Source of the DNA: a virus
Taxonomy: Duplodnaviria; Heunggongvirae; Uroviricota; Caudoviricetes
Virus record (IMG/VR): IMGVR_UViG_2561511241_000005
Span: 1 to 57,087 of that record
Strand: one strand, 5' to 3'
DNA length: 57,087 nt
Below the pieces are notes generated by a model. It had not been told where the DNA came from. It was given only the letters and a program-made list of their open reading frames with translations, and made no database searches. Below, in pieces: positions 1-22,547 of this stretch. Position 1 is the stretch's first letter, and every line of letters starts with the position of its first letter. Position numbers and translations under genes: made by a program.

Positions 1-1200
1 ATGCTTACAGATACCAAATTACGAAACATCCACGGCAAGCCATATGACGGCCCGGAGGAAGTCCCGGACGCGGGCGGATTGTCTGCCAGGATAAGCCCGC
101 ACGGGGTTATATCTTTCCAGTATCGCTACCGATTCAACGGCAAGCCGCGACGGATGAAGATTGGCACTTACGGAGAAATAACACTCAAAGAAGCCCGCGC
201 GGCGGTGGCGGAGCATAAGGAGGTCTTAAACTCAGGACGAGATCCATCGATCGTAAAAAGAATGAACTTGTCCCGCGTTACGACACGGGCAACAATTGAA
301 GATATTGTTAGGGAGTACATGGAATCACCGCAGGCAAGAAACATGGTCAACTATAAGCAAGTCGAGGCGATGCTAAGTAAGCACATTGTCAGACCATGCG
401 GTAGCTATATCGTCGATGATATGGACTCCATAATGTGGGAGGGGATTTTTAGAAAGGTAGCTAATGGTGGCGCGCCCGTTCAGGCAGGGATAGTCTTAAA
501 CAGGATGAAGGCGGTAATAAAATATGCCATGCGACGCCGCCGCGTGGAGCGTGACGACATATCATTGCTACGCGTGAAAGACGTAGGCAAAAACCCGGCG
601 CAAAGGAAACGCGTCTTATCAATACAAGAGATTCACCATCTAATCAGCATTATAGACAGTTCAAAAATGGCGCGGCTAAATCAGATATTGATGAAGCTGA
701 TTATATTCACCGGATGCAGAACAAGCGAACTAACAAACGCAAGGCGCGAACATTTCGATCTTGATAACTGCGTGTGGACCGTGCCGGGTGCATTGAGTAA
801 GAACAGAAATGAGTTTAAGCGCGGTTTATCCGACGTTAGCGTTGATTTATTGCGTGAAGCTATGGATTTGCACGGCTTTAATTTTATCTTCGTTCCCGTG
901 CTTTCTGGAAGGGATGAAGCGGTAGACAGGAGCGTGCCGAAAACAGCCGCAAGGGATTTGATGCTAAGGATGGGCGGCGAGCCGTGGTCGTGTCACGACT
1001 TGCGCCGCACTGTAAGGACAAACCTTTCAGCGCTTGGCATTGCGCCGCACGTAGCAGAAAAGGTTTTAGGTCATAAACTGGCGGGAATGATGGCTATATA
1101 TGATCAGTATGATTACGTGAAGGAGCAAATAGAGGCGATGAATAAACTGGCTGATTACTACATGAAGCCCATTGATTTACAAAATGAAATAACGTCCTGA
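1..1200 (+). CDS. int: P4-type tyrosine integrase
   Basis: 399 aa; N-terminus MLTDTKLR... typical of P4-like integrases; C-terminal HDLRRT...LGH...Y catalytic signature. Confidence 0.9.
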   Translation: MLTDTKLRNIHGKPYDGPEEVPDAGGLSARISPHGVISFQYRYRFNGKPRRMKIGTYGEITLKEARAAVAEHKEVLNSGRDPSIVKRMNLSRVTTRATIEDIVREYMESPQARNMVNYKQVEAMLSKHIVRPCGSYIVDDMDSIMWEGIFRKVANGGAPVQAGIVLNRMKAVIKYAMRRRRVERDDISLLRVKDVGKNPAQRKRVLSIQEIHHLISIIDSSKMARLNQILMKLIIFTGCRTSELTNARREHFDLDNCVWTVPGALSKNRNEFKRGLSDVSVDLLREAMDLHGFNFIFVPVLSGRDEAVDRSVPKTAARDLMLRMGGEPWSCHDLRRTVRTNLSALGIAPHVAEKVLGHKLAGMMAIYDQYDYVKEQIEAMNKLADYYMKPIDLQNEITS

Positions 1201-3067: not shown

Positions 3068-3621
3068 AATTCTAACACCGTTTCCTCGTTAAGTTTTTCA
3101 ATCTCAAATACTGGTTTATCAGGTAGCAGGCCGTTATTTTTCCGGTATTCGTTCAGGCGGCTGTCAAAGTCAAACGCAAGATCATTAGCGTGACCAAAGC
3201 GACCAGGTTTAAACAGTGAGTAAAAATTAAGGCCGTGTTTATTGGTATCTATGCAAAGTGTTTCATCCAGTACCATTAAACGCAGCGTGCGCGAAAGATA
3301 ATTCCACGGAATACCAGTTTCCGCGCTAATGTCACGCATACGCTTTTTAACGCTGTAGTCACTAAATAATGCAGCCACACGATCGCGCCGTTGTGCATAC
3401 AAATATTTAATTCGATACCCCAATAAGCGGCGGCGCGGTCCGAAATATGTATATACACGCTCGACAATACCAGTATCAATCAAGTGTTTAATTGTCTCAG
3501 GCAAACATCCGGCTTCGTCATATTCCGCTGATAATCCGGTTTTCTGGCGTAGCTGGTGCATTGTTGCGATGCCGTCCAGTTCAAGGATATTGATAACTTT
3601 TGTTTCAAGTTCAATGCTCAT
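3064..3621 (-). CDS. hypothetical protein
   Basis: ATG at 3619-3621 preceded by GAGG RBS (MSIELETK...); track start at 3657 is GTG. Confidence 0.55.
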   Translation of the reverse strand: MSIELETKVINILELDGIATMHQLRQKTGLSAEYDEAGCLPETIKHLIDTGIVERVYTYFGPRRRLLGYRIKYLYAQRRDRVAALFSDYSVKKRMRDISAETGIPWNYLSRTLRLMVLDETLCIDTNKHGLNFYSLFKPGRFGHANDLAFDFDSRLNEYRKNNGLLPDKPVFEIEKLNEETVLEL

Positions 3622-3700
3622 TGTTTTTCGCCTCGTTTTAAGCGCGAAAACAGCCACCAGAAAGAGGTCAACTTTCCGGTAAGCCGTTTGCTCAAGTTAA

Positions 3701-5122
3701 TTAAAAAGATGCGTTATTCTGGTTATTTCGTGGGGAAAATCGGCTTGCTGCCGGACGTTGTTGCATTGACTGTATGCAGGCGGACGCCGCGCGTGCCTGG
3801 TCGCATGGTAAAATGTTGCCGTTATCGTCAAACCGCTGGTAAACAGTCCCCGTTTTCCCGTGACGGTTTTTTGAAACGATGATCTCCATGTATTCGCGGG
3901 CAACTGATTGTTCGTTGTAGTAGCCGTCGCGGTAGACCATGATGATCCGGTCTGCGTCTTGTTCAAGATTACCGGAATCACGCAGATCAGAATTGTTCGG
4001 GCGCTTGTTCGGTCGTTCTTCAACGCGGCGGGATAATTGCGCCAGCGCCGCCACTGGCACGCGCAACTCTTTCGCCATCATTTTCAATGACCACGACAAT
4101 TGCCCTACGGCGAGATCATGACGTTCGGCCTTAGCCAGCTTCATTAACCCGATGTAGTCAATCATTACCATTCCCAGGTTAGGATGATCCTGTTTCATCC
4201 GTTCGACGGTGGCGCGTATTTCCTCGACCGTTAACTGCGATGCGTCAACAATCCACACATCGAGATCGGCAAGGGCGCTCATTCCCTGGGCGACGTGCGC
4301 CCACCCTTCATCATCAAGTTTTACCGGATTGCGTAGGCAGTCGGTTGATAAATTACCAGCGCCAGCGATGGCACGTTCAGTCATCTGATCTAGTGACATT
4401 TCAAGCGTGAACAGTAAAACACCTACCCGCTGACCTTCTCCGCCAGGGTATGGACGTTCAGCCGCCGCGCGGGCAATTGCCAACGCCAACGCAGATTTAC
4501 CAGATCCAGGGCGTCCGGCGATAAGTACCAGATCAGTAGCGTTAATGCCTCCTAACATTTCGTCGAGTGGGTCGATCCCTGTTTTGATGTTGTCAGAGTT
4601 CACGCCACACTCCATGCGTTTACTTAACACTTCCGTGTACTCCTGTACCGCGTCGCGCAACAGCACCGGAATAATCTTGTCTTTCGTTACTTTTAATTTT
4701 GAATACCGGGAATCAAAATATTTCATCGTCTCCCTGACAGCTTCAAGTGTCCCGGTCTCCAGGTTGTAGCGTATATCGTCCATCAGTTCCAACATCTGCC
4801 GCCGCTGATATTCCTCCTGTAATAGCGCGGCGTACCCCTTAAGGTTGGCGGCAGATGGACACGATCGCGCCGTTTGCATTAGCGGGACAAAATTTTCGTT
4901 ACCGATTTCATCACCGACCATCAGCGCGTCAATAAGGTTTCTGTTTCTGGCTTGCGCCCGGATTATCTCAAACGCTCGTTTATATAGTGGAATGGTGAAG
5001 ACTTCAGGATCGAGCGTAGCAAGAACATCTTGCGCGTTAGGAGTAAGACCGCCCAACAGGAGGCCACCTATCACAGCCGCCTCCCGTTCCTGGCGTAATG
5101 AGTTTACTTGCTCAGTCACCAT
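3701..5122 (-). CDS. DnaB-family replicative DNA helicase
   Basis: 473 aa; Walker A GRPGSGKS, DnaB-like N-terminal domain; GGAGG RBS upstream. Confidence 0.9.
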   Translation of the reverse strand: MVTEQVNSLRQEREAAVIGGLLLGGLTPNAQDVLATLDPEVFTIPLYKRAFEIIRAQARNRNLIDALMVGDEIGNENFVPLMQTARSCPSAANLKGYAALLQEEYQRRQMLELMDDIRYNLETGTLEAVRETMKYFDSRYSKLKVTKDKIIPVLLRDAVQEYTEVLSKRMECGVNSDNIKTGIDPLDEMLGGINATDLVLIAGRPGSGKSALALAIARAAAERPYPGGEGQRVGVLLFTLEMSLDQMTERAIAGAGNLSTDCLRNPVKLDDEGWAHVAQGMSALADLDVWIVDASQLTVEEIRATVERMKQDHPNLGMVMIDYIGLMKLAKAERHDLAVGQLSWSLKMMAKELRVPVAALAQLSRRVEERPNKRPNNSDLRDSGNLEQDADRIIMVYRDGYYNEQSVAREYMEIIVSKNRHGKTGTVYQRFDDNGNILPCDQARAASACIQSMQQRPAASRFSPRNNQNNASF

Positions 5123-5140
5123 TATGGCATTTCCTCCGGT

Positions 5141-6259
5141 TTACAGAATGGAATATTCAGGGTAATAAACAAAGCGCCCGATCTCCCCGTGATCAGGACT
5201 GTAAATTATTACCGCCGCCAGCCGCCGCGACCGCCAGCCGCCATTCGTTGAATAAGCGTCTTTGCCCGCTAACGTGCCGTGGTACTCAACAACGCCCAAC
5301 GATGATTCAATCAGCCGTTGGTGATGCCAGTGCCCGCAATGAGCGTAAACCGCCGATGACTTGCCGAAATCCTCCCGCCAGTCAGAGACGCACGCAGCCA
5401 ACAAATTTTCGGGTTTTTTGATAGTGTGCCCGTGATGATAGGCAAGGAATGTTTTGCCGTACTGTGTGTGGTGGACGATAGCAGGGGATACATCAACCGT
5501 CACACGCGGTTCATCTTCGTAAAAAGCCGCCAGCGCCGCACGTAGCCAAATCATCCCTGATTGGTCATGGTTGCCGGATAACACTTGGATCTCGACGTCT
5601 TTATGATTTAGTAACATCTTCCCGACCGCCCGCCGGACAGACCGGATAGCCACATAAACAAGTTTTGCGTAGCGGCTATCTTGATCAAGGATATGACCGC
5701 TTGTTGGTGTAACCGGGATCATCCCATCAGAATGAAGTAGATCCCCACCCAACAGCAAAACAGCTTTTTCAGACATTGGCGCAGCGCCTACCGCGTAGTC
5801 AAAGAAATCATTTAGCACGCGTTCAGCGATCCCGGTGTCGTAGCTCTCACCGCATTCAGCTTTATGAGCAAGCGCACCGATATGAAGATCGAATACCGGA
5901 TAAAGGGCCAGGCTTTTTTGGAAATCAATTTCAGGCACTGGCACGGCCTCCGCGCGTGGTATCTCTTCCGTGAAAGCGTCGCAAGCCGATTGCATTAGCC
6001 TTTCCATTTCGTCGCGATCACGGGATGTTTTAATCCAGCGCATAATCACATTGCCATCCTTATCGACTAGCAATGACTCGCCATTGACGCCAAAACCAGG
6101 TGCGCGGCGCGTGGATATTAAACCGCGCTTCGCCAGCCTTGCGCCCAGGCGTTCGACGTTGCGTTTTGCCATTCCATATTCTTCGGCTATTTGCTTGTAA
6201 GTTTTACCATTCTTGTATTCAGCGATCAGTTGTTCGTCGCTGATCTTTCTTTGTGACAT
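5141..6259 (-). CDS. HTH-domain protein fused to calcineurin-like metallophosphoesterase
   Basis: 372 aa; N-terminal HTH (KTYKQIAEEYGMAKRNVERLGARLAKRG); DLHIG, GDLLHSDG, GNHD, GHWHH phosphoesterase motifs; GAGGAA RBS. Confidence 0.7.
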   Translation of the reverse strand: MSQRKISDEQLIAEYKNGKTYKQIAEEYGMAKRNVERLGARLAKRGLISTRRAPGFGVNGESLLVDKDGNVIMRWIKTSRDRDEMERLMQSACDAFTEEIPRAEAVPVPEIDFQKSLALYPVFDLHIGALAHKAECGESYDTGIAERVLNDFFDYAVGAAPMSEKAVLLLGGDLLHSDGMIPVTPTSGHILDQDSRYAKLVYVAIRSVRRAVGKMLLNHKDVEIQVLSGNHDQSGMIWLRAALAAFYEDEPRVTVDVSPAIVHHTQYGKTFLAYHHGHTIKKPENLLAACVSDWREDFGKSSAVYAHCGHWHHQRLIESSLGVVEYHGTLAGKDAYSTNGGWRSRRLAAVIIYSPDHGEIGRFVYYPEYSIL

Positions 6260-6292
6260 AACGTTATTTCCTCAGGTTTACATTTTGTATAT

Positions 6293-7012
6293 TTAACCAC
6301 AAACGAATAATTTAGTTATCCATGCTTGGCCCTTAGCAGTGAATAACGCTTGCTCATATCCATCGAAAGTTAATTTCATCTCGCCGTATCCTTTATCAAT
6401 AAACCATTGACTAAATACACGACGACGACAACGAAGATCATAAACTCCAACAGCTTCGAGCTTTCTGTTTAATTTAATCGCAGACATTCCCAGCGCTTTT
6501 CCGACTTCTGAAGCCGTGCGGTGCATGTCGTTTTTAACAATGGCATCACAGACAGCCGCTTTTGGCGCAAGCTGTTTATTAACCAGTGCAAGCCGTTCCT
6601 TTTCCTCAGCAAGATCGGCAGCAAGGCGCAACGCTTCGCTTAATGTTTGAGGAATTGCAGGAGTGTTTTGCTGTACCCGTTTTTCAAGTTCAAACCATCG
6701 ATCAATAACAGCCGTCCGGCGCTTGATGTCGTAGCCAGTTATTAAAATCTCAGTGTATCTTCTATCGAGAAGATATTCCCAGCTATTCGGATTGTTTTTA
6801 TCATATTGATTGCATATAACTGATTGATTTGTAACGTAACTCAAATCTGATTTACGAATATAATCATCAGGTTTACCGCCTAACAATGCAGAAAGCATAA
6901 CGCGAATATCACGGCATACATTAAGATGTTTCTTACCAGTTAAATCTGCAATCTCACGCGATGACATTGTTAACACTTCATTCGCGCCATTAAGCGCCAT
7001 CAATTCAGACAT
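6293..7012 (-). CDS. Antirepressor (Rha-like N-terminus, KilAC-like C-terminus)
   Basis: ATG at 7010-7012 with GGAG RBS; EVLTMSSREIADLTGKKHLNVCRDIR Rha-like region and KilAC-like C-terminal region. Confidence 0.7.
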   Translation of the reverse strand: MSELMALNGANEVLTMSSREIADLTGKKHLNVCRDIRVMLSALLGGKPDDYIRKSDLSYVTNQSVICNQYDKNNPNSWEYLLDRRYTEILITGYDIKRRTAVIDRWFELEKRVQQNTPAIPQTLSEALRLAADLAEEKERLALVNKQLAPKAAVCDAIVKNDMHRTASEVGKALGMSAIKLNRKLEAVGVYDLRCRRRVFSQWFIDKGYGEMKLTFDGYEQALFTAKGQAWITKLFVCG

Positions 7013-7143
7013 TTTATTTTCTCCGTAAAACGCGCTACAACGCAAAAACCCACCGCGTAACCCACTTGTAAGGGTGCAGTGTCTTTTTTGCGCCAGAAGC
7101 GCAATCAGGTGGCTAATTTTCGATTTACAGACTGGTAGGTAGG

Positions 7144-7245
7144 TTATGGATTGACTAGAAGGAATAAGCCGCCGAACAAAGCGACATTAACAGCTATTGC
7201 CGCAGCTATGGCGAAAGCCAGGGCGAAAACGTGTTTACTATCCAT
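7144..7245 (-). CDS. micro-ORF encoding a 33-aa hydrophobic peptide
   Basis: MDSKHVFALAFAIAAAIAVNVALFGGLFLLVNP; GAGAGG RBS; preceded on the transcript by an inverted repeat. Confidence 0.3.
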   Translation of the reverse strand: MDSKHVFALAFAIAAAIAVNVALFGGLFLLVNP

Positions 7246-7378
7246 TTTAAAATCCTCTCTGTAACGCTCTCTAACGAGCTAATCGCAAAAAGGTAGGCAA
7301 GTGTAGCACCACATGCGATTTAGCTCGCTGGTGAGGTTGTTTTGTGGGTAATTTTGGATTTTTGCGGATCGTGGTTGG

Positions 7379-8446
7379 TCAAAGAACGCCAGCGCGCGTA
7401 TCACGTAGCGTTTTTGGTTTAAGCAGGAAATCAAGTGTCGCAGTGAAGCCATTGCCGAAGTAAAAATCTGAAGCCGTGTTTTTGAACGTTTCAAAGTAGG
7501 CGACAAAGCCGTTAATGCTTTTGTCTTTCAGGTAGTCAGTGAACGCATAGATCTTGCGTTCAAGATCCCGATCCAGTTCGGCAGGTGGTAACAGACCGTC
7601 AAACGTGCTGTTAAATGCTTCCACCACGTCGGCGGCGTTTACAGTAGCTGATAGCTTGCGCCATTGTTCAGCATCAGCCAGATACCCATCGAATTTAGTT
7701 ACCCGGCAAATGTTGATAGGCTTAGGTGTTCCACCACGGCTACGCCATTGCGTTAAAGCCCACTCAATTACTAACGTGATCTCATCCTCCGTATATGCCT
7801 TACGTGTTTTTGTTTCTGTCAGTAGTTCGATGAATGGCTTAGCGTCACGACATTTGCATCCTGCTTTTTCGTTGTAGAAGGCTAAGCAACGGTAAGCTGC
7901 CTCGCTTATCTGAAAGTAACCACCCTGATTGACCGTTTTTTGTTCATTTTCGCTAATACACGAAGTGTATATATCTTTTTCTATTTCTTCTTCTAATTCT
8001 TCTTCTAATTCTAATTCATGACCCTGACATGACCCGGTCATGACCCTATCATGACCTTTTGGCGTTGGGTTGATTAACTTTTCTAATTTGAATTGTTCTT
8101 TTGCTGCATTTATAGCAGCTCTGTAACCACTCTTAGAAGTCATTGATTGGTCCAGCCTTTTCAATAACTTTAAACAAGTTATGTGTCCTTGAGAACATTC
8201 AAATAAACCAATTTCGATGAAGTATTTCATCATTTCTTCTATACGTTTTTCAGTAGATCCGACGTTTCGCGCAATGATTCTCGCGTCATGTCGTAGGTCA
8301 AAAGTCAGATTGTGCTGATCTACGTCATAAGTAATTAATTCAAGGCAATACCAGTAAAGACCGTATCCTTCCAGGCCATAATCAAGCAAAACGTTTTGAA
8401 GTTTTTCGTCGCGGTTCGCATCGCTATCATGCTTAAACCACTTCAT
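7379..8446 (-). CDS. Replication initiation / replisome organiser protein (O-like)
   Basis: 355 aa; N-terminus MKWFKHDSDANRDEKLQ...GYGLYWYCLE typical of phage replisome-organiser N domain; GGAGGA RBS; contains iterons. Confidence 0.75.
   Translation of the reverse strand: MKWFKHDSDANRDEKLQNVLLDYGLEGYGLYWYCLELITYDVDQHNLTFDLRHDARIIARNVGSTEKRIEEMMKYFIEIGLFECSQGHITCLKLLKRLDQSMTSKSGYRAAINAAKEQFKLEKLINPTPKGHDRVMTGSCQGHELELEEELEEEIEKDIYTSCISENEQKTVNQGGYFQISEAAYRCLAFYNEKAGCKCRDAKPFIELLTETKTRKAYTEDEITLVIEWALTQWRSRGGTPKPINICRVTKFDGYLADAEQWRKLSATVNAADVVEAFNSTFDGLLPPAELDRDLERKIYAFTDYLKDKSINGFVAYFETFKNTASDFYFGNGFTATLDFLLKPKTLRDTRAGVL
8017..8056. repeat. Putative origin iterons: four direct CATGACC(C) repeats at 11-bp spacing inside the replication gene
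   Basis: CATGACCC at 8017, 8028, 8039 and CATGACC at 8050, flanked by AT-rich sequence and an acidic ELELEEELEEE-coding repeat. Confidence 0.5.
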
Positions 8447-14877: not shown

Positions 14878-15111
14878 ATGGCTTTATTCAACCTGTCAGA
14901 GCCGCAATTCAACGCCGTAAAAACTGCCGCACGCGCGGCGCTTTCTGCCTGCAAAGCGGAGGTAGAAAAGAACGGATACAGCGATAAAGCCACGCGGCTG
15001 ATACTCGACAAGCATTATCGCAAGGTCGCCCCGCTAATTAGCATTGAGCGTTTTGTGTGGTTGGTGGGGTATCTAAATAACCGCTGGGGGACTGATCAGG
15101 ATTATTTCTAA
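14878..15111 (+). CDS. hypothetical protein
   Basis: 77 aa ORF. Confidence 0.45.
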   Translation: MALFNLSEPQFNAVKTAARAALSACKAEVEKNGYSDKATRLILDKHYRKVAPLISIERFVWLVGYLNNRWGTDQDYF

Positions 15112-15120
15112 GGGGGCGTA

Positions 15121-15660
15121 ATGAAAAATGATTACGGCGGAAGCCATACGCCAAAAGAAATAAAGGACTTATGGCAAACGCCAAAACCAGTTTTTAGAGG
15201 AATGGATCGTGAATTCGAATTCGTCGCGGATGTGGCGGCAAACAAGGCAAACGCATTAGTTCCGCGATATATAACCGAAGAGATGGACACACTCCATTAT
15301 CCGTGGGGAGCGGTGGCAATGCCTGGTGAGTATGTCTGGCTTAATCCACCATATTCTAATCCGGGGCCATTCGTAGATAAGGCAGCGATGGAACATCACC
15401 GAAATCATATTGGCTGTGTAATGTTGTTGCCAGCCGACATCTCTGTTAACTGGTTTATGAACGGCGTGGAGACGGCAAACGAATGCCGATTAATCACGCG
15501 CGGGCGTCTGGCGTTTATCAATGCTGCGACAGGGAAACCAGCAAGCGGAAACAATAAAGGGAGCTTGTTCTTGATCTGGCATCCACGGTGCAGACATGAA
15601 TGTATTTTCACGCAGATAACACGTAAAGAGCTATATGCAAGAGGTGCAGAAAATGACTAG
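15121..15660 (+). CDS. Phage-type DNA N6-adenine methyltransferase
   Basis: 179 aa; NPPYS catalytic motif and overall resemblance to small phage Dam-family methylases. Confidence 0.8.
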   Translation: MKNDYGGSHTPKEIKDLWQTPKPVFRGMDREFEFVADVAANKANALVPRYITEEMDTLHYPWGAVAMPGEYVWLNPPYSNPGPFVDKAAMEHHRNHIGCVMLLPADISVNWFMNGVETANECRLITRGRLAFINAATGKPASGNNKGSLFLIWHPRCRHECIFTQITRKELYARGAEND

Positions 15661-16144
15661 TGCGGCTGATTTATTACGAATTGCAGCGGAAACAATCGAG
15701 CAAAGAGGTAAACAAAACGGCTACGACAGAAAAGAGGAAAAATCAGCGCCAAAAATAGCCACTATATACAACGCTAAGAAGGGGGCAAATTTAACCCCAC
15801 TTGATGTATGGGATCTATTGATTTGTCTCAAGGAGGCGCGATTAGAAGCCATTTTGAGCAATAACAGCGATCCGACAGACACGTTAATTGATTTGATTAG
15901 CTATAACGCGCTAAAAGCGGAGCAAATATTAACGGAGCGGGAGGAAGAACAAAGAAAGAAACAGGCTGTTTTTGATATGCCGTTAAATTGCGGCTGTAAG
16001 AAAACGTCAATCCCAGGCGACTTGATCGCCAGTGGTGAAGTAACAATGAATGGCAGCTTCCAACTTGATAACGGCTGGCGGTTTAATAAAGAGGCTTTAT
16101 TGTATACACCTAAGGATCATAAAGATGAAAAGGGTGATGATTGA
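15653..16144 (+). CDS. hypothetical protein
   Basis: ATG 15653 with GAGGTG RBS; about 163 aa. Confidence 0.5.
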   Translation: MTSAADLLRIAAETIEQRGKQNGYDRKEEKSAPKIATIYNAKKGANLTPLDVWDLLICLKEARLEAILSNNSDPTDTLIDLISYNALKAEQILTEREEEQRKKQAVFDMPLNCGCKKTSIPGDLIASGEVTMNGSFQLDNGWRFNKEALLYTPKDHKDEKGDD

Positions 16145-16628
16145 CAGGTTACTGGCCTGCGTTTATGTCGCCGTTTTCGTGATCATAAATCTTATTGTTA
16201 ACCATTGCGGCCCGTGGGTAATTCCGATCACCACGGTAGCCGCCGTGTGTGTCAATATGATGATCCGTGACTTCCTGTTATATGACGGCGGCCTGAAATG
16301 GTCGGCTACAACATGCGCCGCCGCTGGCGCAATCACTGTGCTGATAAATTACGACGCCGGAATGGTGGCGATCGCGTCATTTGTCGCGGTTGTTTCCGGT
16401 GCGCTTATTTCTGGTGGCGTTTACCGGGTTTTACCTGGTGATTTCGATTCAAAACGATGGCCTGCAAATATAGCGTCCGCCATTGGTGATGCGTTAATTT
16501 TCCCGACGCTATCGTTTATGGCGTTTATGCCGGAAATATCAGCGATGCAATTCATCTCAAAAATGGCAGCGGTAACGGTGATCACCATCATCATGCGCCG
16601 CTATTTCACGTTTGAGGGCAGAAAATGA
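16125..16628 (+). CDS. integral membrane protein (about five TM helices)
   Basis: ATG 16125 with AAGGA RBS; highly hydrophobic 167 aa; stop overlaps next start. Confidence 0.55.
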   Translation: MKRVMIDRLLACVYVAVFVIINLIVNHCGPWVIPITTVAAVCVNMMIRDFLLYDGGLKWSATTCAAAGAITVLINYDAGMVAIASFVAVVSGALISGGVYRVLPGDFDSKRWPANIASAIGDALIFPTLSFMAFMPEISAMQFISKMAAVTVITIIMRRYFTFEGRK

Positions 16629-17413
16629 GCAGGGCTAAACATTGGTTAAATAATTGGCTTAGAAATTGGGTGGTATGGTCGCTGTACGACGGCAGCGGGT
16701 ACGCCGTTAAAGATTGGGCGGACGCTGGTTATAAATGTTATTGCTTCAACTATGACGGCGCTAATCACGGTGATTATGACGGTGTAAAAATAATTCATCC
16801 AAATATTGAATATGTTAACGTCTGGATTGATAGCCATTTTCTGGTAATGTTCTCCCCTGAATTGTCTGTATATCCAGATCCTGACATTATCCTGGCTTTT
16901 CCTCCGTGCGATGATCTCGCCGTGTCCGGCGCTCGCTGGTTCGCTGATAAGCGGAAGAAAGACCCTTACTTTCAGCAGAAGGCAGCGTATAACGCAAAGT
17001 TAGTAGAAACGCTGGCGAGTATGTATAACGTGCCGTGGATGGTGGAAAATCCTGTAGGCGCACTGTCAACGTTATGGCGTAAACCGGATTTTATCTTCAA
17101 TCCGTGCGCTTACGGTGGCTACCTGCCGGAAGATGATAAGCATCCCGCTTTCCCGGAATACATTGCCGACCGCGACGCCTACACGAAGAAAACTTGTATT
17201 TGGTGCGGGAATGGATTTAAGCAGCCGCTATTCCGTCCTGTGCCGATGCCAGATGAATGGGAAGACAGTAAGCAGCACGCGAAGTTAGGCGGAAAATCAA
17301 AGCGAACAAAGATGATCCGCTCACTAACGCCGCGTGGCTTCGCCCGTGCTGTATTCCTGGCTAACGACCGGGCCATCAATCGTACTACGCTCAACCGCGT
17401 TTTGCCGGACTGA
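16625..17413 (+). CDS. Putative SAM-dependent DNA methyltransferase, C5-cytosine-like motifs
   Basis: 262 aa; DGSGY (motif I-like), FPPCDDLAVSG (PC motif IV-like), MVENPVG (ENV motif VI-like). Confidence 0.5.
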   Translation: MSRAKHWLNNWLRNWVVWSLYDGSGYAVKDWADAGYKCYCFNYDGANHGDYDGVKIIHPNIEYVNVWIDSHFLVMFSPELSVYPDPDIILAFPPCDDLAVSGARWFADKRKKDPYFQQKAAYNAKLVETLASMYNVPWMVENPVGALSTLWRKPDFIFNPCAYGGYLPEDDKHPAFPEYIADRDAYTKKTCIWCGNGFKQPLFRPVPMPDEWEDSKQHAKLGGKSKRTKMIRSLTPRGFARAVFLANDRAINRTTLNRVLPD

Positions 17414-17435
17414 AGTTTACAAAATGGCGTCATTG

Positions 17436-17451
17436 TGTGATGAATGTCACA
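17436..17451. promoter_or_regulatory. Perfect TGTGA-N6-TCACA palindrome (CRP-consensus-like site)
   Basis: tgtgatgaatgtcaca in intergenic region between methylase-like gene and NinF-like ORF. Confidence 0.3.
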
Positions 17452-17572
17452 TAATGGCGCTTTACACCTTGTTAGCACGTATCCATTTTGTATACTTCAA
17501 GCAAACAAAATGCTCTTTAAAAATCCGGCAGCGCTGAAATGCGTAGAAATCACCTGAAAAGGAGAGAGCATT

Positions 17573-17749
17573 ATGCCTTTTGATAATTACCAATGGCATG
17601 ACGACTATGAACGAGAAAGCGTTATGCGTGCAATGTGCAATGTATGCAGCACGAAGAAAGGAGGCTGTAACGAGTGCAACGAATGCTTAGAACATTGGCT
17701 AAGGGCCGGACACGCCGAAAGGCTGAACGAAACAGAGAATCAAAAATAA
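17573..17749 (+). CDS. NinF-like small zinc-ribbon protein (58 aa)
   Basis: AGGAG RBS; CNVC...CNECNEC cysteine cluster; not in ORF track (<60 aa). Confidence 0.4.
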   Translation: MPFDNYQWHDDYERESVMRAMCNVCSTKKGGCNECNECLEHWLRAGHAERLNETENQK

Positions 17750-21806: not shown

Positions 21807-22037
21807 ATGCGTATCTATGAGCACAAGCGGGATAAGACCCGCTTTTTTGTTCGTGCTGGCGTTGCGTACCAGTATCACGAATGCGGATATATTGAGGCGC
21901 TTGCTTACGATCTGGACTTCGAACAAGAAAAGGAATGGTTTGATTTTAAAGTTTACCGGAAGCGTAAACCGTCGCGCGACGAGCGCCACGCTATCCGGGA
22001 CTTTTTAATCAGCATTGAACGATGGGATACAGAGTAA
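21807..22037 (+). CDS. hypothetical protein
   Basis: 76 aa ORF with RBS. Confidence 0.5.
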   Translation: MRIYEHKRDKTRFFVRAGVAYQYHECGYIEALAYDLDFEQEKEWFDFKVYRKRKPSRDERHAIRDFLISIERWDTE

Positions 22038-22330
22038 TGAGAGCGAAGAAAATGGCAGACAAGAAAGCGTTAGTTATTGCCACAACGGATGTATCGTTAT
22101 TTACGAAGGGCGAAGAAATAGATCTTAAATTGCTTTTTGGCATGTTTGAGCCACACGAAAAGCCGTGGTTCGTACATGAAGATAAACAAGGCAATATGCG
22201 CGTTGTAGTGCCGGACAAAAACAGCGACATATTTTTTGCTATTCCAGACCCATTACATGACGGTGAAATGCTGGCGGTATTGTTGGTCACTGATGCTGTT
22301 ACTTACAAGGGAAAAAAACATGAAAGTTAA
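22037..22330 (+). CDS. hypothetical protein
   Basis: ORF; start uncertain (22022, 22037 or 22052). Confidence 0.45.
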   Translation: MRAKKMADKKALVIATTDVSLFTKGEEIDLKLLFGMFEPHEKPWFVHEDKQGNMRVVVPDKNSDIFFAIPDPLHDGEMLAVLLVTDAVTYKGKKHES

Positions 22331-22547
22331 ATTCTTGCACGATCACGGTTATCCGTCACTGAAACAGGTTGTTGGTAAGGTCGTGAAAGTGGTTCATAGT
22401 GATAATGTTACTTGCATGATTAACGGTGCTGATCTAATAGCCGCTGGCGCTGATGACCATTACATCAATCCTGCGTGGTCGTATACGTTCAGCCTTGCCG
22501 ACTTCGTTGGCGACAAGGGGCGCGGGCTGGAAGTAGTCGAGGGTTAA
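22320..22547 (+). CDS. hypothetical protein
   Basis: 75 aa from ATG 22320. Confidence 0.45.
   Translation: MKVKFLHDHGYPSLKQVVGKVVKVVHSDNVTCMINGADLIAAGADDHYINPAWSYTFSLADFVGDKGRGLEVVEG

Follow-up and report, generated by a model that had tools for sequence, protein, structure and literature searches.

Does a membrane protein encoded between two putative DNA methylases belong to a single DNA-modification machine, or do these genes only share an operon? The question is raised by a locus of a 57,087-nt viral sequence (hereafter the window), which by its sequence is a mEp021-like (mEpimmI) temperate prophage of E. coli, one of a group of coliphages that reportedly are prevalent in the gut of humans. 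An earlier note on this DNA described the locus as a DNA-modification cluster and offered two roles for the membrane protein, namely uptake of a precursor for an unusual DNA modification or a membrane-linked anti-restriction function.

Organization of the Block

The block is a segment of the delayed-early ('nin') operon of a mEp021-like coliphage, and comparison with phage and prophage records showed that its synteny is shared with mEp021-type relatives. The open reading frames are present where they were originally placed, apart from the start of the membrane gene, and reading of the sequence gives four genes, each overlapping the next start-to-stop (Table 1). The ATG of the DUF6378 gene at 15653 lies inside ATGACTAG, in the overlap with the Dam stop, the ATG of the membrane gene at 16125 is found 20 nt 5′ of the DUF6378 stop, and ATGA at 16625-16628 makes up the junction between the membrane and methylase genes. 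At the sequence level, these overlaps support the translational coupling already proposed for the block, although not the count of three genes, since the 390-465 nt separating Dam from the membrane gene are occupied by the DUF6378 gene, which had been overlooked. As for the membrane gene itself, its likely start is the ATG at 16125, the one used by the homologues and by the PGAP annotation, and not position 16050. The whole four-gene block is intact in a distant relative (L003) at 52-65% protein identity, a conservation compatible with a functional link among its genes.

Table 1. Features of the block, with positions in the window.
Feature	Position	Strand	Length	Basis of assignment
Phage Dam-family N6-adenine DNA methyltransferase	15121..15660	+	179 aa	PF05869, TIGR01712, phrog_111, PADLOC orphan MTase
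DUF6378 protein	15653..16144	+	163 aa	PF19905, phrog_9871, phrog_474
Membrane protein, divergent VUT/COG1738 (YhhQ-like), predicted ECF S-component-like fold	16125..16628	+	167 aa	Family homology, fold
Predicted Dcm-like C5-cytosine DNA methyltransferase	16625..17413	+	262 aa	phrog_757, motifs, predicted fold
Hairpin just past the methylase stop	17427..17460	+		RNA fold of 17405-17575

A scan for promoters and terminators gave no convincing internal signal in the block. The hairpin beyond its end is strong, with a 13-bp stem and a z value of -5.67 against shuffled sequences. In the mEp021 record, TERM_4 comes directly after the methylase gene, and nutR2 of this phage has been placed downstream of gp32, named a putative cytosine methyltransferase (PMC11893012); the hairpin would correspond, in position only, to the region of mEp021 terminator t4 and nutR2. 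In a PADLOC scan only orphan-MTase models were matched, by Dam, and a BFVD fold search returned weak matches, none of them with a name.

The overlooked gene encodes a member of DUF6378 (31.4 bits to PF19905, gathering cutoff 27.1), whose homologues carry a precomputed match to the same model, and an identical (100%) 163-aa protein is already on record. Its N-terminal domain of ~100 aa is conserved (88-94% identity in all the mEp-group relatives compared), followed by a hypervariable C-terminal tail, only 21-47% identical in three relatives. Neither single-sequence nor profile searches against the PDB gave anything meaningful for this protein, and a word-index search returned close relatives only. 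The domain may resemble MazG-like pyrophosphatases. Nothing observed supports the 'phosphofructokinase' label attached to phrog_474.

Two Orphan Methyltransferases

The Dam-type call on the first gene was correct. The encoded protein aligns to profile positions 1-167 of the 169 of PF05869 (E 2e-51; 174.4 bits, cutoff 28.1) and scores 140.9 bits with the TIGR01712 equivalog (cutoff 97.05), that is, it is a full-length member above both curated cutoffs, and it keeps the (D/N)PPY motif as NPPYS at residues 75-79 (NPPY 75-78). There is no notable difference from the family, which we take to include the Dam enzymes of HP1, T1 and VT2. Compared with relatives, its dN/dS is 0.05-0.08.

The 262-aa product of the last gene, rightly recognised as a C5-methylase, falls in phrog_757 (E 7e-89) and has more than 7800 homologues. 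It shows YDGSG at 21-25 (motif I), PPC95 (motif IV) and E141-N-P (motif VI), and the corresponding FxGxG, PPC and ENP columns are invariant across 46 homologues; C95, E141 and K188/K189 are the predicted catalytic residues. An AF2 model of the protein (pLDDT 87, pTM 0.86) was compared with the PDB by Foldseek, where the top 50 matches were all DNMT3A/3B/3C catalytic domains, the best of them DNMT3A/3B with E 2e-7 and probability 1.0 (TM 0.34-0.50 over the top 50). The class I methyltransferase fold of a C5 enzyme, the absence of which had been named among the findings that would speak against the assignment, is thus predicted with confidence. Likewise, the remark that the protein is too short for a canonical target-recognition domain agrees with its best structural matches being DNMT3A/3B catalytic domains. 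In HMM searches on the proteins of the block, as proposed in the earlier note, Dam matches PF05869, whereas the thresholds of PF00145 and PF02592 were not reached by the 262-aa and the membrane protein, respectively. For the former, there was no Pfam match at E <= 1, only 2 among the 120 homologues listed carry a precomputed PF00145 match, and the family profile reaches M.HaeIII in the PDB at E 0.73 only; the phrog_757 family is too divergent for the PF00145 model.

The 'Dcm-like' protein of JakobBernoulli Bas07 (bas07_0054, 236 aa, 711-bp gene) is 60% identical over 237 residues, and its C82, E128, K175 and K176 align with C95, E141, K188 and K189 of the window protein. Structural models of both the window protein and the Dcm-like proteins of the Drexlerviridae of the BASEL collection follow the DNMT3 catalytic domain, although the window protein has ~13 extra residues at the N-terminus and ~13 at the C-terminus and, unlike them, belongs to a temperate phage, where its gene immediately follows that of a VUT protein. 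The Dcm of phage K42 (KarlJaspers-like), with the same length and residue numbering as the Bas07 protein, makes 5mC, as determined by LC-MS, and triggers retron Ec86 (bioRxiv 10.1101/2023.08.16.553469). Membership of the 262-aa protein in this retron trigger family predicts that mEpimmI phages would be sensed by Ec86. Judging from motifs and model, it appears to be an ordinary phage Dcm-like C5-cytosine DNA methyltransferase, with nothing exotic about it.

By analogy with characterised relatives, target sites are probably GATC-type for Dam and CCWGG-type for the Dcm-like enzyme. The CCWGG assignment is carried over from the relative with 60% identity, where msDNA mutants had pointed to the site; it does not come from mapping on the protein encoded here. 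Observed/expected ratios in the prophage (GATC 1.10, CCWGG 1.01) indicate no avoidance and are neutral evidence.

A Divergent Transporter of the VUT/YhhQ Family

The gene previously described as encoding a five-TM membrane protein is real, but its start is probably not at 16050, and the number of transmembrane segments depends on the source: the mEp021 record gives six, and the model has five long helices, one of which (30-74) is long enough for two. On its own, the window protein scores below the curated threshold of PF02592 (cutoff 27.2 bits; it obtains 11.9, E 0.3), with a sub-threshold match spanning model positions 6-149 of 152, and has no match to NCBIfam/TIGR00697. Its homologues tell more. 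A profile of the phage protein recovers 258 representatives, and 70 of 73 VUT relatives match PF02592 (best E 5e-15) and 62 of 73 TIGR00697. Moreover, alignment by hhalign of a deep profile of the window protein with CAjan gp41 gave 97.8% and E 1.2e-12, where BLASTP and a shallow profile had been insignificant and only the deep profile succeeded. The window protein is also homologous by profile to E. coli YhhQ (COG1738), an importer of preQ0/preQ1, and it keeps the family-invariant D122 and K146 together with most of the near-invariant residues. Homology to VUT/COG1738 was in this way found through intermediates and profiles, and membership of the window protein may be described as transitive, via its homologues.

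In its model the protein is small and polytopic, built of helices throughout, with an S-component-type fold like that of the ECF S-components RibU, FolT, BioY and ThiT and of the solitary BtuM. Sequence identity to these is as low as 8-15%, the phage has no genes for ECF T or A components, and membership in an S-component family is not claimed. Homology and predicted fold together identify the membrane protein as a divergent transporter of the VUT/YhhQ family with an ECF S-component fold. Its gene has the lowest dN/dS of the block (0.012-0.029 at dS 0.18-0.36), that is, it is under the strongest constraint, and it is full-length in 45 viral contigs at 96-99% protein identity.

A Transporter without DpdA

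Elsewhere in phages, homologues of this transporter keep a characteristic company. In 8/8 other isolated phages examined (PEAT2, AB3P2, Opt-719, LHE71, Phc, RCIP0319, Tbat1_6 and ECO111 5-P) the VUT gene directly adjoins a small gene resembling DpdA, the TGT-like transglycosylase for 7-deazaguanine in DNA, as it does in two metagenomic loci (L138 and L053), giving at least 10 phages or loci with a DpdA partner. The VUT proteins of these two-gene modules are 28-35% identical to that of the window; their genes, which belong to early or accessory regions, overlap the neighbour in like manner, but the neighbour is DpdA-like there and the Dcm-like methylase in the window, where the latter gene occupies the position held by DpdA in other phages. 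A fusion of QueF and VUT was also found (P0219). CAjan gp41, annotated as 'putative preQ0 transporter', is of similarly short length (159 versus 167 aa), although it is encoded inside a 12-gene 7-deazaguanine cluster, whereas no Que or DpdA genes are found near the transporter of the window. The CAjan yhhQ gene sits within the preQ0 cluster of this phage, and its deletion left the DNA modification unchanged.

Since Pfam gives no match even for the validated DpdA of CAjan, its negatives for DpdA/TGT were left aside in favour of a custom HMM, for which CAjan DpdA and three small DpdA-like proteins were aligned and which was run on ORFs of at least 40 aa. CAjan DpdA is itself hit, with E 9e-13, by the profile of the small DpdA-like proteins. 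At E <= 1 no DpdA-like ORF was detected in the window, the mEp-like loci, L003 or L049-52, and the same HMM finds the partners in L053, L138 and L146-150; in two neighbours of metagenomic VUT genes, for which Pfam had given nothing, it later recognised DpdA-like genes. By this search, the window contains no DpdA gene of a 7-deazaguanine DNA-modification system. The phage and prophage records closest to it carry no annotated genes for preQ0 synthesis, nor did its long ORFs without assignment match any in Pfam or PHROGs, in a search that took in some of the ORFs <190 aa. A second orphan VUT lineage (P0133, 44% identical) is also devoid of DpdA.

The methylase, in turn, does without the transporter. 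Of 50,697 phage records, 1520 (~3%) contain the Dcm-like family, and in nearly all of them the membrane gene is missing; in a set of 80 viral loci with the methylase, ~59 do without it. Because a VUT neighbour within 4 kb occurs only in the 21 mEp-type loci among these 80, the Dcm-like enzyme is considered independent of the membrane gene, and the idea of an obligate pair of membrane protein and methylase is rejected, their adjacency being limited to one phage lineage.

Biological Role of the Block

With DpdA lacking, the methylase independent and a fourth gene missed, the view of the block as one DNA-modification machine is not borne out. The idea of precursor uptake comes close to the role of the VUT family elsewhere, but the part concerning an unusual DNA modification finds no DpdA-like gene here, and a membrane-linked anti-restriction function is without support. 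What is shown here, namely the structure of the genes, the families and folds of their products, the statistics of their context and their purifying selection, can be brought together in another reading, in which methylation specificities, the substrate of the transporter and its destination, and the anti-restriction role are inferred. We assign this reading a probability of about 60%: two known orphan methylases, an 'orphan' precursor transporter and a DUF6378 protein, encoded by overlapping yet functionally separable accessory genes. Dam and the Dcm-like enzyme would act, as SAM-dependent orphan methyltransferases, on replicating phage DNA, each alone and without the membrane protein, and the resulting methylation would blunt host restriction. 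The membrane protein would work as a solitary S-component-type VUT/YhhQ transporter. Its most probable substrate is a 7-deazaguanine precursor of queuosine (preQ0 or preQ1), a circumstantial case drawn from the QueF fusion and the DpdA adjacency in 8/8 phages. In other phages such a transporter would partner DpdA, which swaps these bases into DNA; in the mEp021-type lineage, where DpdA is absent and a Dcm-like gene lies in its place, the imported base may feed only the host tRNA-queuosine pathway or some other acceptor. E. coli itself makes preQ0 and has YhhQ, which leaves the benefit of an extra importer unclear and counts against this reading.

Other explanations differ mostly in what they make of the transporter. 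A VUT-fold protein could do another job, such as the uptake of a different vitamin-like compound or a membrane effect on exclusion or lysis timing, and the low identity to the DpdA-linked homologues (28-35%), the insignificant direct Pfam match, a fold common to riboflavin, folate, biotin, thiamine and cobalamin S-components and the second lineage without DpdA (P0133) lend it some weight. We regard it nevertheless as unlikely, as the only characterised members named by the TIGR00697/PRK11212 models transport preQ0/preQ1, a deazaguanine link is also suggested by the fusion to QueF and by DpdA recurring as the neighbour, and no holin or exclusion family was matched in PHROGs or PADLOC. Incorporation of the imported precursor into phage DNA by an enzyme not recognisable as DpdA (DUF6378, the Dcm-like protein or another gene) would account for the partnership of transporter homologues with DpdA in at least 10 phages, the translational coupling to DNA-modification genes, the gene order retained in the distant L003 and the very strong purifying selection on a transporter whose partner is not visible. 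This is improbable, however, given that the window yielded no DpdA-like ORF at E <= 1 and that close relatives lack annotated preQ0-synthesis genes, a Dcm-like protein that keeps all C5 catalytic residues and functions without VUT elsewhere, and a Dam::VUT deletion fusion in a relative (L056; P0130), which indicates that the gene can be lost.

The occasional deletion seen in L056 could be read in yet another way, together with a Dcm-like gene located exactly at the DpdA position with the same overlapping stop/start: the membrane gene would be a functionless remnant of a VUT-DpdA module in which the methylase replaced DpdA. Set against this are the minimal dN/dS, the 45 full-length copies and a copy in L003 that is intact, with the key residues of the family, at 52% identity, so that a remnant seems very improbable. 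Still harder to believe is a catalytically dead or repurposed 262-aa protein that is not a DNA C5-methyltransferase. The missing PF00145 match, TM-scores to DNMT3 of just 0.4-0.5 and truncated or split copies of the gene in some relatives would fit this idea, but the motif columns invariant across 46 homologues, the equivalents of C82/E128/K175/K176 of active phage Dcm and a dN/dS of 0.08-0.17 oppose it.

The separable-gene reading predicts no unusual modification of the DNA of the mEp021-like prophage, and the current understanding of these systems is not overturned by any of these findings. The puzzle lies in a strongly conserved deazaguanine-type importer without a DNA-inserting enzyme. A strongly constrained VUT gene, devoid of DpdA and coupled to a methylase, could point to a transporter that delivers an imported base to an undescribed, DpdA-independent nucleic-acid modification in mEpimmI phages, a step that could involve DUF6378 or another of their proteins, but we give this very little credence. 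In any case, the orphan importer offers a test case for the published idea of phages that manipulate the supply of queuosine precursors while their own DNA stays unmodified. Annotations can also be updated: phrog_4899, listed as 'hypothetical/putative membrane protein' under unknown function, can henceforth be labelled as a transporter of the VUT/YhhQ type, and the small 'hypothetical' genes beside VUT homologues in several Drexlerviridae records are DpdA-like.

Gene content and genomic setting

The 2.5 kb around the block share 86-94% DNA identity with the mEp021 group of temperate coliphages (mEp010, 013, 021, 044, 515, 554 and MagusPhagus), described as the 'mEpimmI' Nus-dependent group (PMC11893012), and prophages in 34 of 5426 complete E. 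coli genomes match the same stretch. With an integrase ORF exactly at its start and host abgT (PF03806, E 3e-197) at its end, which falls inside that gene, the window corresponds to an integrated prophage. A related prophage of E. coli N1286 adjoins ogt, the attachment-site region. The block lies in the rightward early operon, with genes for NinF, NinG, RusA and the Q antiterminator downstream and an ipe homologue upstream. Ipe, the 'inducer of pleiotropic effects', mediates a haemolytic phenotype in lysogens (PMC11893012).

The earlier note had described three genes in this block, whose ORFs are all present, but the actual count is four, as the gap left unexplained between Dam and the membrane protein is occupied by a DUF6378 gene scoring above the Pfam gathering threshold. 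Every start codon overlaps the end of the preceding gene (ATGACTAG for Dam/DUF6378, 20 nt for DUF6378/membrane protein and ATGA for membrane protein/methylase), so that the translational coupling previously proposed seems a fair reading of the sequence. The intergenic RNA at 17405-17575, which includes a 13-bp hairpin, has a very stable predicted fold (-55.6 kcal/mol, z -5.67); the mEp021 record places terminator t4 at the same position, and a nutR2 antitermination site has been described in this region (PMC11893012).

A protein identical to the DUF6378 product is already on record, where lengths range from 112 to 170 aa. Its N-terminal domain (first ~100 residues) is conserved among mEp phages (88-94% identity, dN/dS 0.07-0.14), and its C-terminal tail (last ~55 residues), which overlaps the start of the transporter gene, is hypervariable (21-47% identity in three relatives).

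Features of the block, its surroundings and the compared phage loci
Feature	Record	Position	Details
Integrase gene	window	1-1200	window start, exactly at ORF
ipe homologue	window	14878-15111	directly upstream of Dam; 94% identical to mEp021 ipe; phrog_303
Dam	window	15121-15660	179 aa
DUF6378 protein	window	15653-16144	163 aa
Membrane protein (VUT)	window	16125-16628	167 aa
C5-methylase-like (Dcm-like) protein	window	16625-17413	262 aa
Hairpin	window	17427-17460	directly 3' of methylase gene; 13-bp stem
Host abgT	window	55642-57087	minus strand
Dam::VUT deletion fusion (P0130)	L056 (IMGVR_UViG_3300045988_049781)	3654-4007	
VUT locus (P0133)	L049, metagenomic temperate phage	6001-8258	
Truncated Dcm-like gene	L134, N1286 prophage	21929-22420	
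Split Dcm-like gene	L146, LHE71	187-920	
Small DpdA-like gene	L145, Opt-719	4561-5304	'hypothetical protein', adjoining VUT
Small DpdA-like gene	L146, LHE71	3492-4319	'hypothetical protein', adjoining VUT
Small DpdA-like gene	L147, Phc	3464-4285	'hypothetical protein', adjoining VUT
Small DpdA-like gene	L148, RCIP0319	3474-4301	'hypothetical protein', adjoining VUT
Small DpdA-like gene	L149, Tbat1_6	3519-4259	'hypothetical protein', adjoining VUT

Two methylases of known kinds

Both methylases of the block belong to kinds already known. The HMM check leaves the Dam-type adenine methylase unambiguous, with a full-profile match to PF05869 (E 2e-51), a score above the TIGR01712 cutoff and an NPPYS motif. 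The 262-aa protein has no match in a Pfam scan and matches phrog_757 (E 7e-89). The family is a very large one, with over 7800 metagenomic homologues and members in 1520 of 50,697 phage records, carried by Drexlerviridae, Dhillonvirus, large myoviruses and Klebsiella, Salmonella and Campylobacter phages. Invariant among 46 aligned members are the GS of FDGSG, PPC, ENP, K-x-TC-W and IRSLT-x-R, and an AlphaFold model built on this alignment is confident (pLDDT 87, pTM 0.86). In a Foldseek comparison with the PDB, all 50 matches listed were catalytic domains of DNMT3A, DNMT3B or DNMT3C (E down to 2e-7, probability 1.0, TM 0.34-0.50). A methyltransferase fold is thus predicted, in agreement with the minimal C5-methylase suggested before; the lack of such a fold, which the earlier note had named as counting against its reading, was not seen.

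In this regard, retron Ec86 is triggered by a 711-bp 'Dcm-like' gene found in a Drexlerviridae phage of the KarlJaspers type. The encoded protein, likewise modelled on DNMT3A, puts 5mC into msDNA, as detected by LC-MS, and an inactive control with C82, E128, K175 and K176 jointly mutated left Ec86 untriggered (bioRxiv 10.1101/2023.08.16.553469). The window protein is 60% identical to the product of a 711-bp gene in the sister phage JakobBernoulli, named 'Dcm-like C5 cytosine methyltransferase', and window residues C95, E141 and K188/K189 fall exactly on C82, E128 and K175/K176 in the alignment. On this identity and these aligned functional residues, we assign the 262-aa protein to a family of small cytosine methylases from phages that has already been characterised.

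From the behaviour of their families, the two methylases would each work separately on phage DNA, as orphan enzymes with an anti-restriction role. The prophage shows no depletion of GATC (O/E 1.10) or CCWGG (O/E 1.01), which is compatible with anti-restriction methylases though not decisive. Other sites are under-represented in the prophage (1-55600), strongly for CTAG (15 sites, O/E 0.24) and moderately for GANTC and GGCC (O/E 0.66 each). The N1286 prophage has a Dcm-like gene truncated at its 5' end, and in phage LHE71 the gene is split into two ORFs; speculatively, selection against it, for instance through retron Ec86-type sensing, may lie behind such cases.

A divergent transporter of the VUT family

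Direct scans of the membrane protein yielded no more than an insignificant Vut_1 match (E 0.3), yet one spanning the whole model. An exhaustive profile search recovered 258 representative homologues; among 73 sampled, 70 carry Pfam Vut_1 and 62 match TIGR00697, 'queuosine precursor transporter', and one homologue is a QueF-VUT fusion. The window protein keeps the family-invariant D122 and K146 together with most near-invariant residues, and its model on the homologue alignment is very confident (pLDDT 94.4). The profile matches, the fusion, the model and the kept residues place it as a divergent, short member of VUT/COG1738, whose characterised representative is E. coli YhhQ, a preQ0/preQ1 importer (NCBIfam model names; cited in PMC6884629). 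Many bacterial homologues, among them P0202, P0253 and some 20 others (290-340 aa), bear a C-terminal extension of ~150 aa, which corresponds to DUF5020 in two cases; the remaining bacterial extensions gave no Pfam match.

Other phages pair this transporter with the DNA transglycosylase DpdA. The 7-deazaguanine cluster of coliphage CAjan, which has been studied by experiment, includes a gene for a 159-aa 'preQ0 transporter', and a deep VUT profile detects this protein with E 1.2e-12. A tblastn search of isolated phages with the window VUT gave 14 further records (28-35% identity), and in all eight distinct phages examined (PEAT2, AB3P2, Opt-719, LHE71, Phc, RCIP0319, Tbat1_6 and ECO111 5-P) a small DpdA-like gene (243-275 aa) directly abuts or overlaps the VUT gene. 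Two records label it 'queuine tRNA-ribosyltransferase', that of ECO111 5-P is unannotated and the others read 'hypothetical'. The pairing also occurs on two metagenomic contigs (L053 and L138), which carry two of the nearest metagenomic homologues outside the mEp lineage. The small DpdA-like profile matches the genetically validated CAjan DpdA (E 9e-13), itself without a match in a Pfam-A scan. This recurrent adjacency defines VUT plus DpdA as a recurrent two-gene module, and Opt-719, LHE71, Phc, RCIP0319 and Tbat1_6 (Drexlerviridae and related) may carry a 7-deazaguanine DNA modification absent from their records.

A transporter kept without its usual partner

In the mEp lineage, the gene overlapping the VUT stop codon is instead the Dcm-like methylase. 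A DpdA HMM at E <= 1 found nothing in the window, the mEp-type loci, the distant relative L003 or loci L049-52, and preQ0 synthesis genes are neither annotated in close relatives nor found among the longer unassigned ORFs of the window. The window VUT adds a new member to a known transporter family, and its point of interest is that it is conserved although the DpdA that usually accompanies it is missing. The earlier note's observation is confirmed in part, and its suggestion of precursor uptake for an unusual DNA modification is partly supported, through the transporter family; we do not predict such a modification here, and a DpdA-independent use of the base for one has a low probability.

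A gene without its partner might be a decaying remnant. Occasional loss does occur: in one relative (L056), a deletion removes DUF6378 and leaves the N-terminus of Dam joined to the transporter's C-terminal half, so both genes are dispensable for that phage. Against decay, VUT shows the strongest constraint in the block (dN/dS 0.012-0.029 at dS 0.18-0.36, compared with 0.05-0.08 for Dam and 0.08-0.17 for the Dcm-like gene), which makes a remnant very improbable. The order Dam-DUF6378-VUT-Dcm is also preserved in L003, whose proteins are 52-65% identical to those of the block. Nor does the methylase need the transporter: a VUT gene lies within 4 kb in only 21 of 80 viral methylase loci, all mEp-type, so the adjacency is lineage-specific.

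Most likely, the transporter would import a queuosine-precursor base. With DpdA absent, this base would be limited to the host tRNA-queuosine pathway or another acceptor, a conjectural entry that is the weakest step of the scheme. YhhQ homologues have been noted in some phages, with no evident pattern, and phages that have Q-pathway genes yet lack DpdA may increase the supply of Q precursors (PMC6884629).

L049 represents a second orphan VUT lineage, with 44% identity to the window VUT and likewise without DpdA by the HMM. Downstream of its VUT gene come genes for two ~140-aa proteins and for an N6_N4 DNA methylase. Both orphan lineages occur in phages that bear an integrase.
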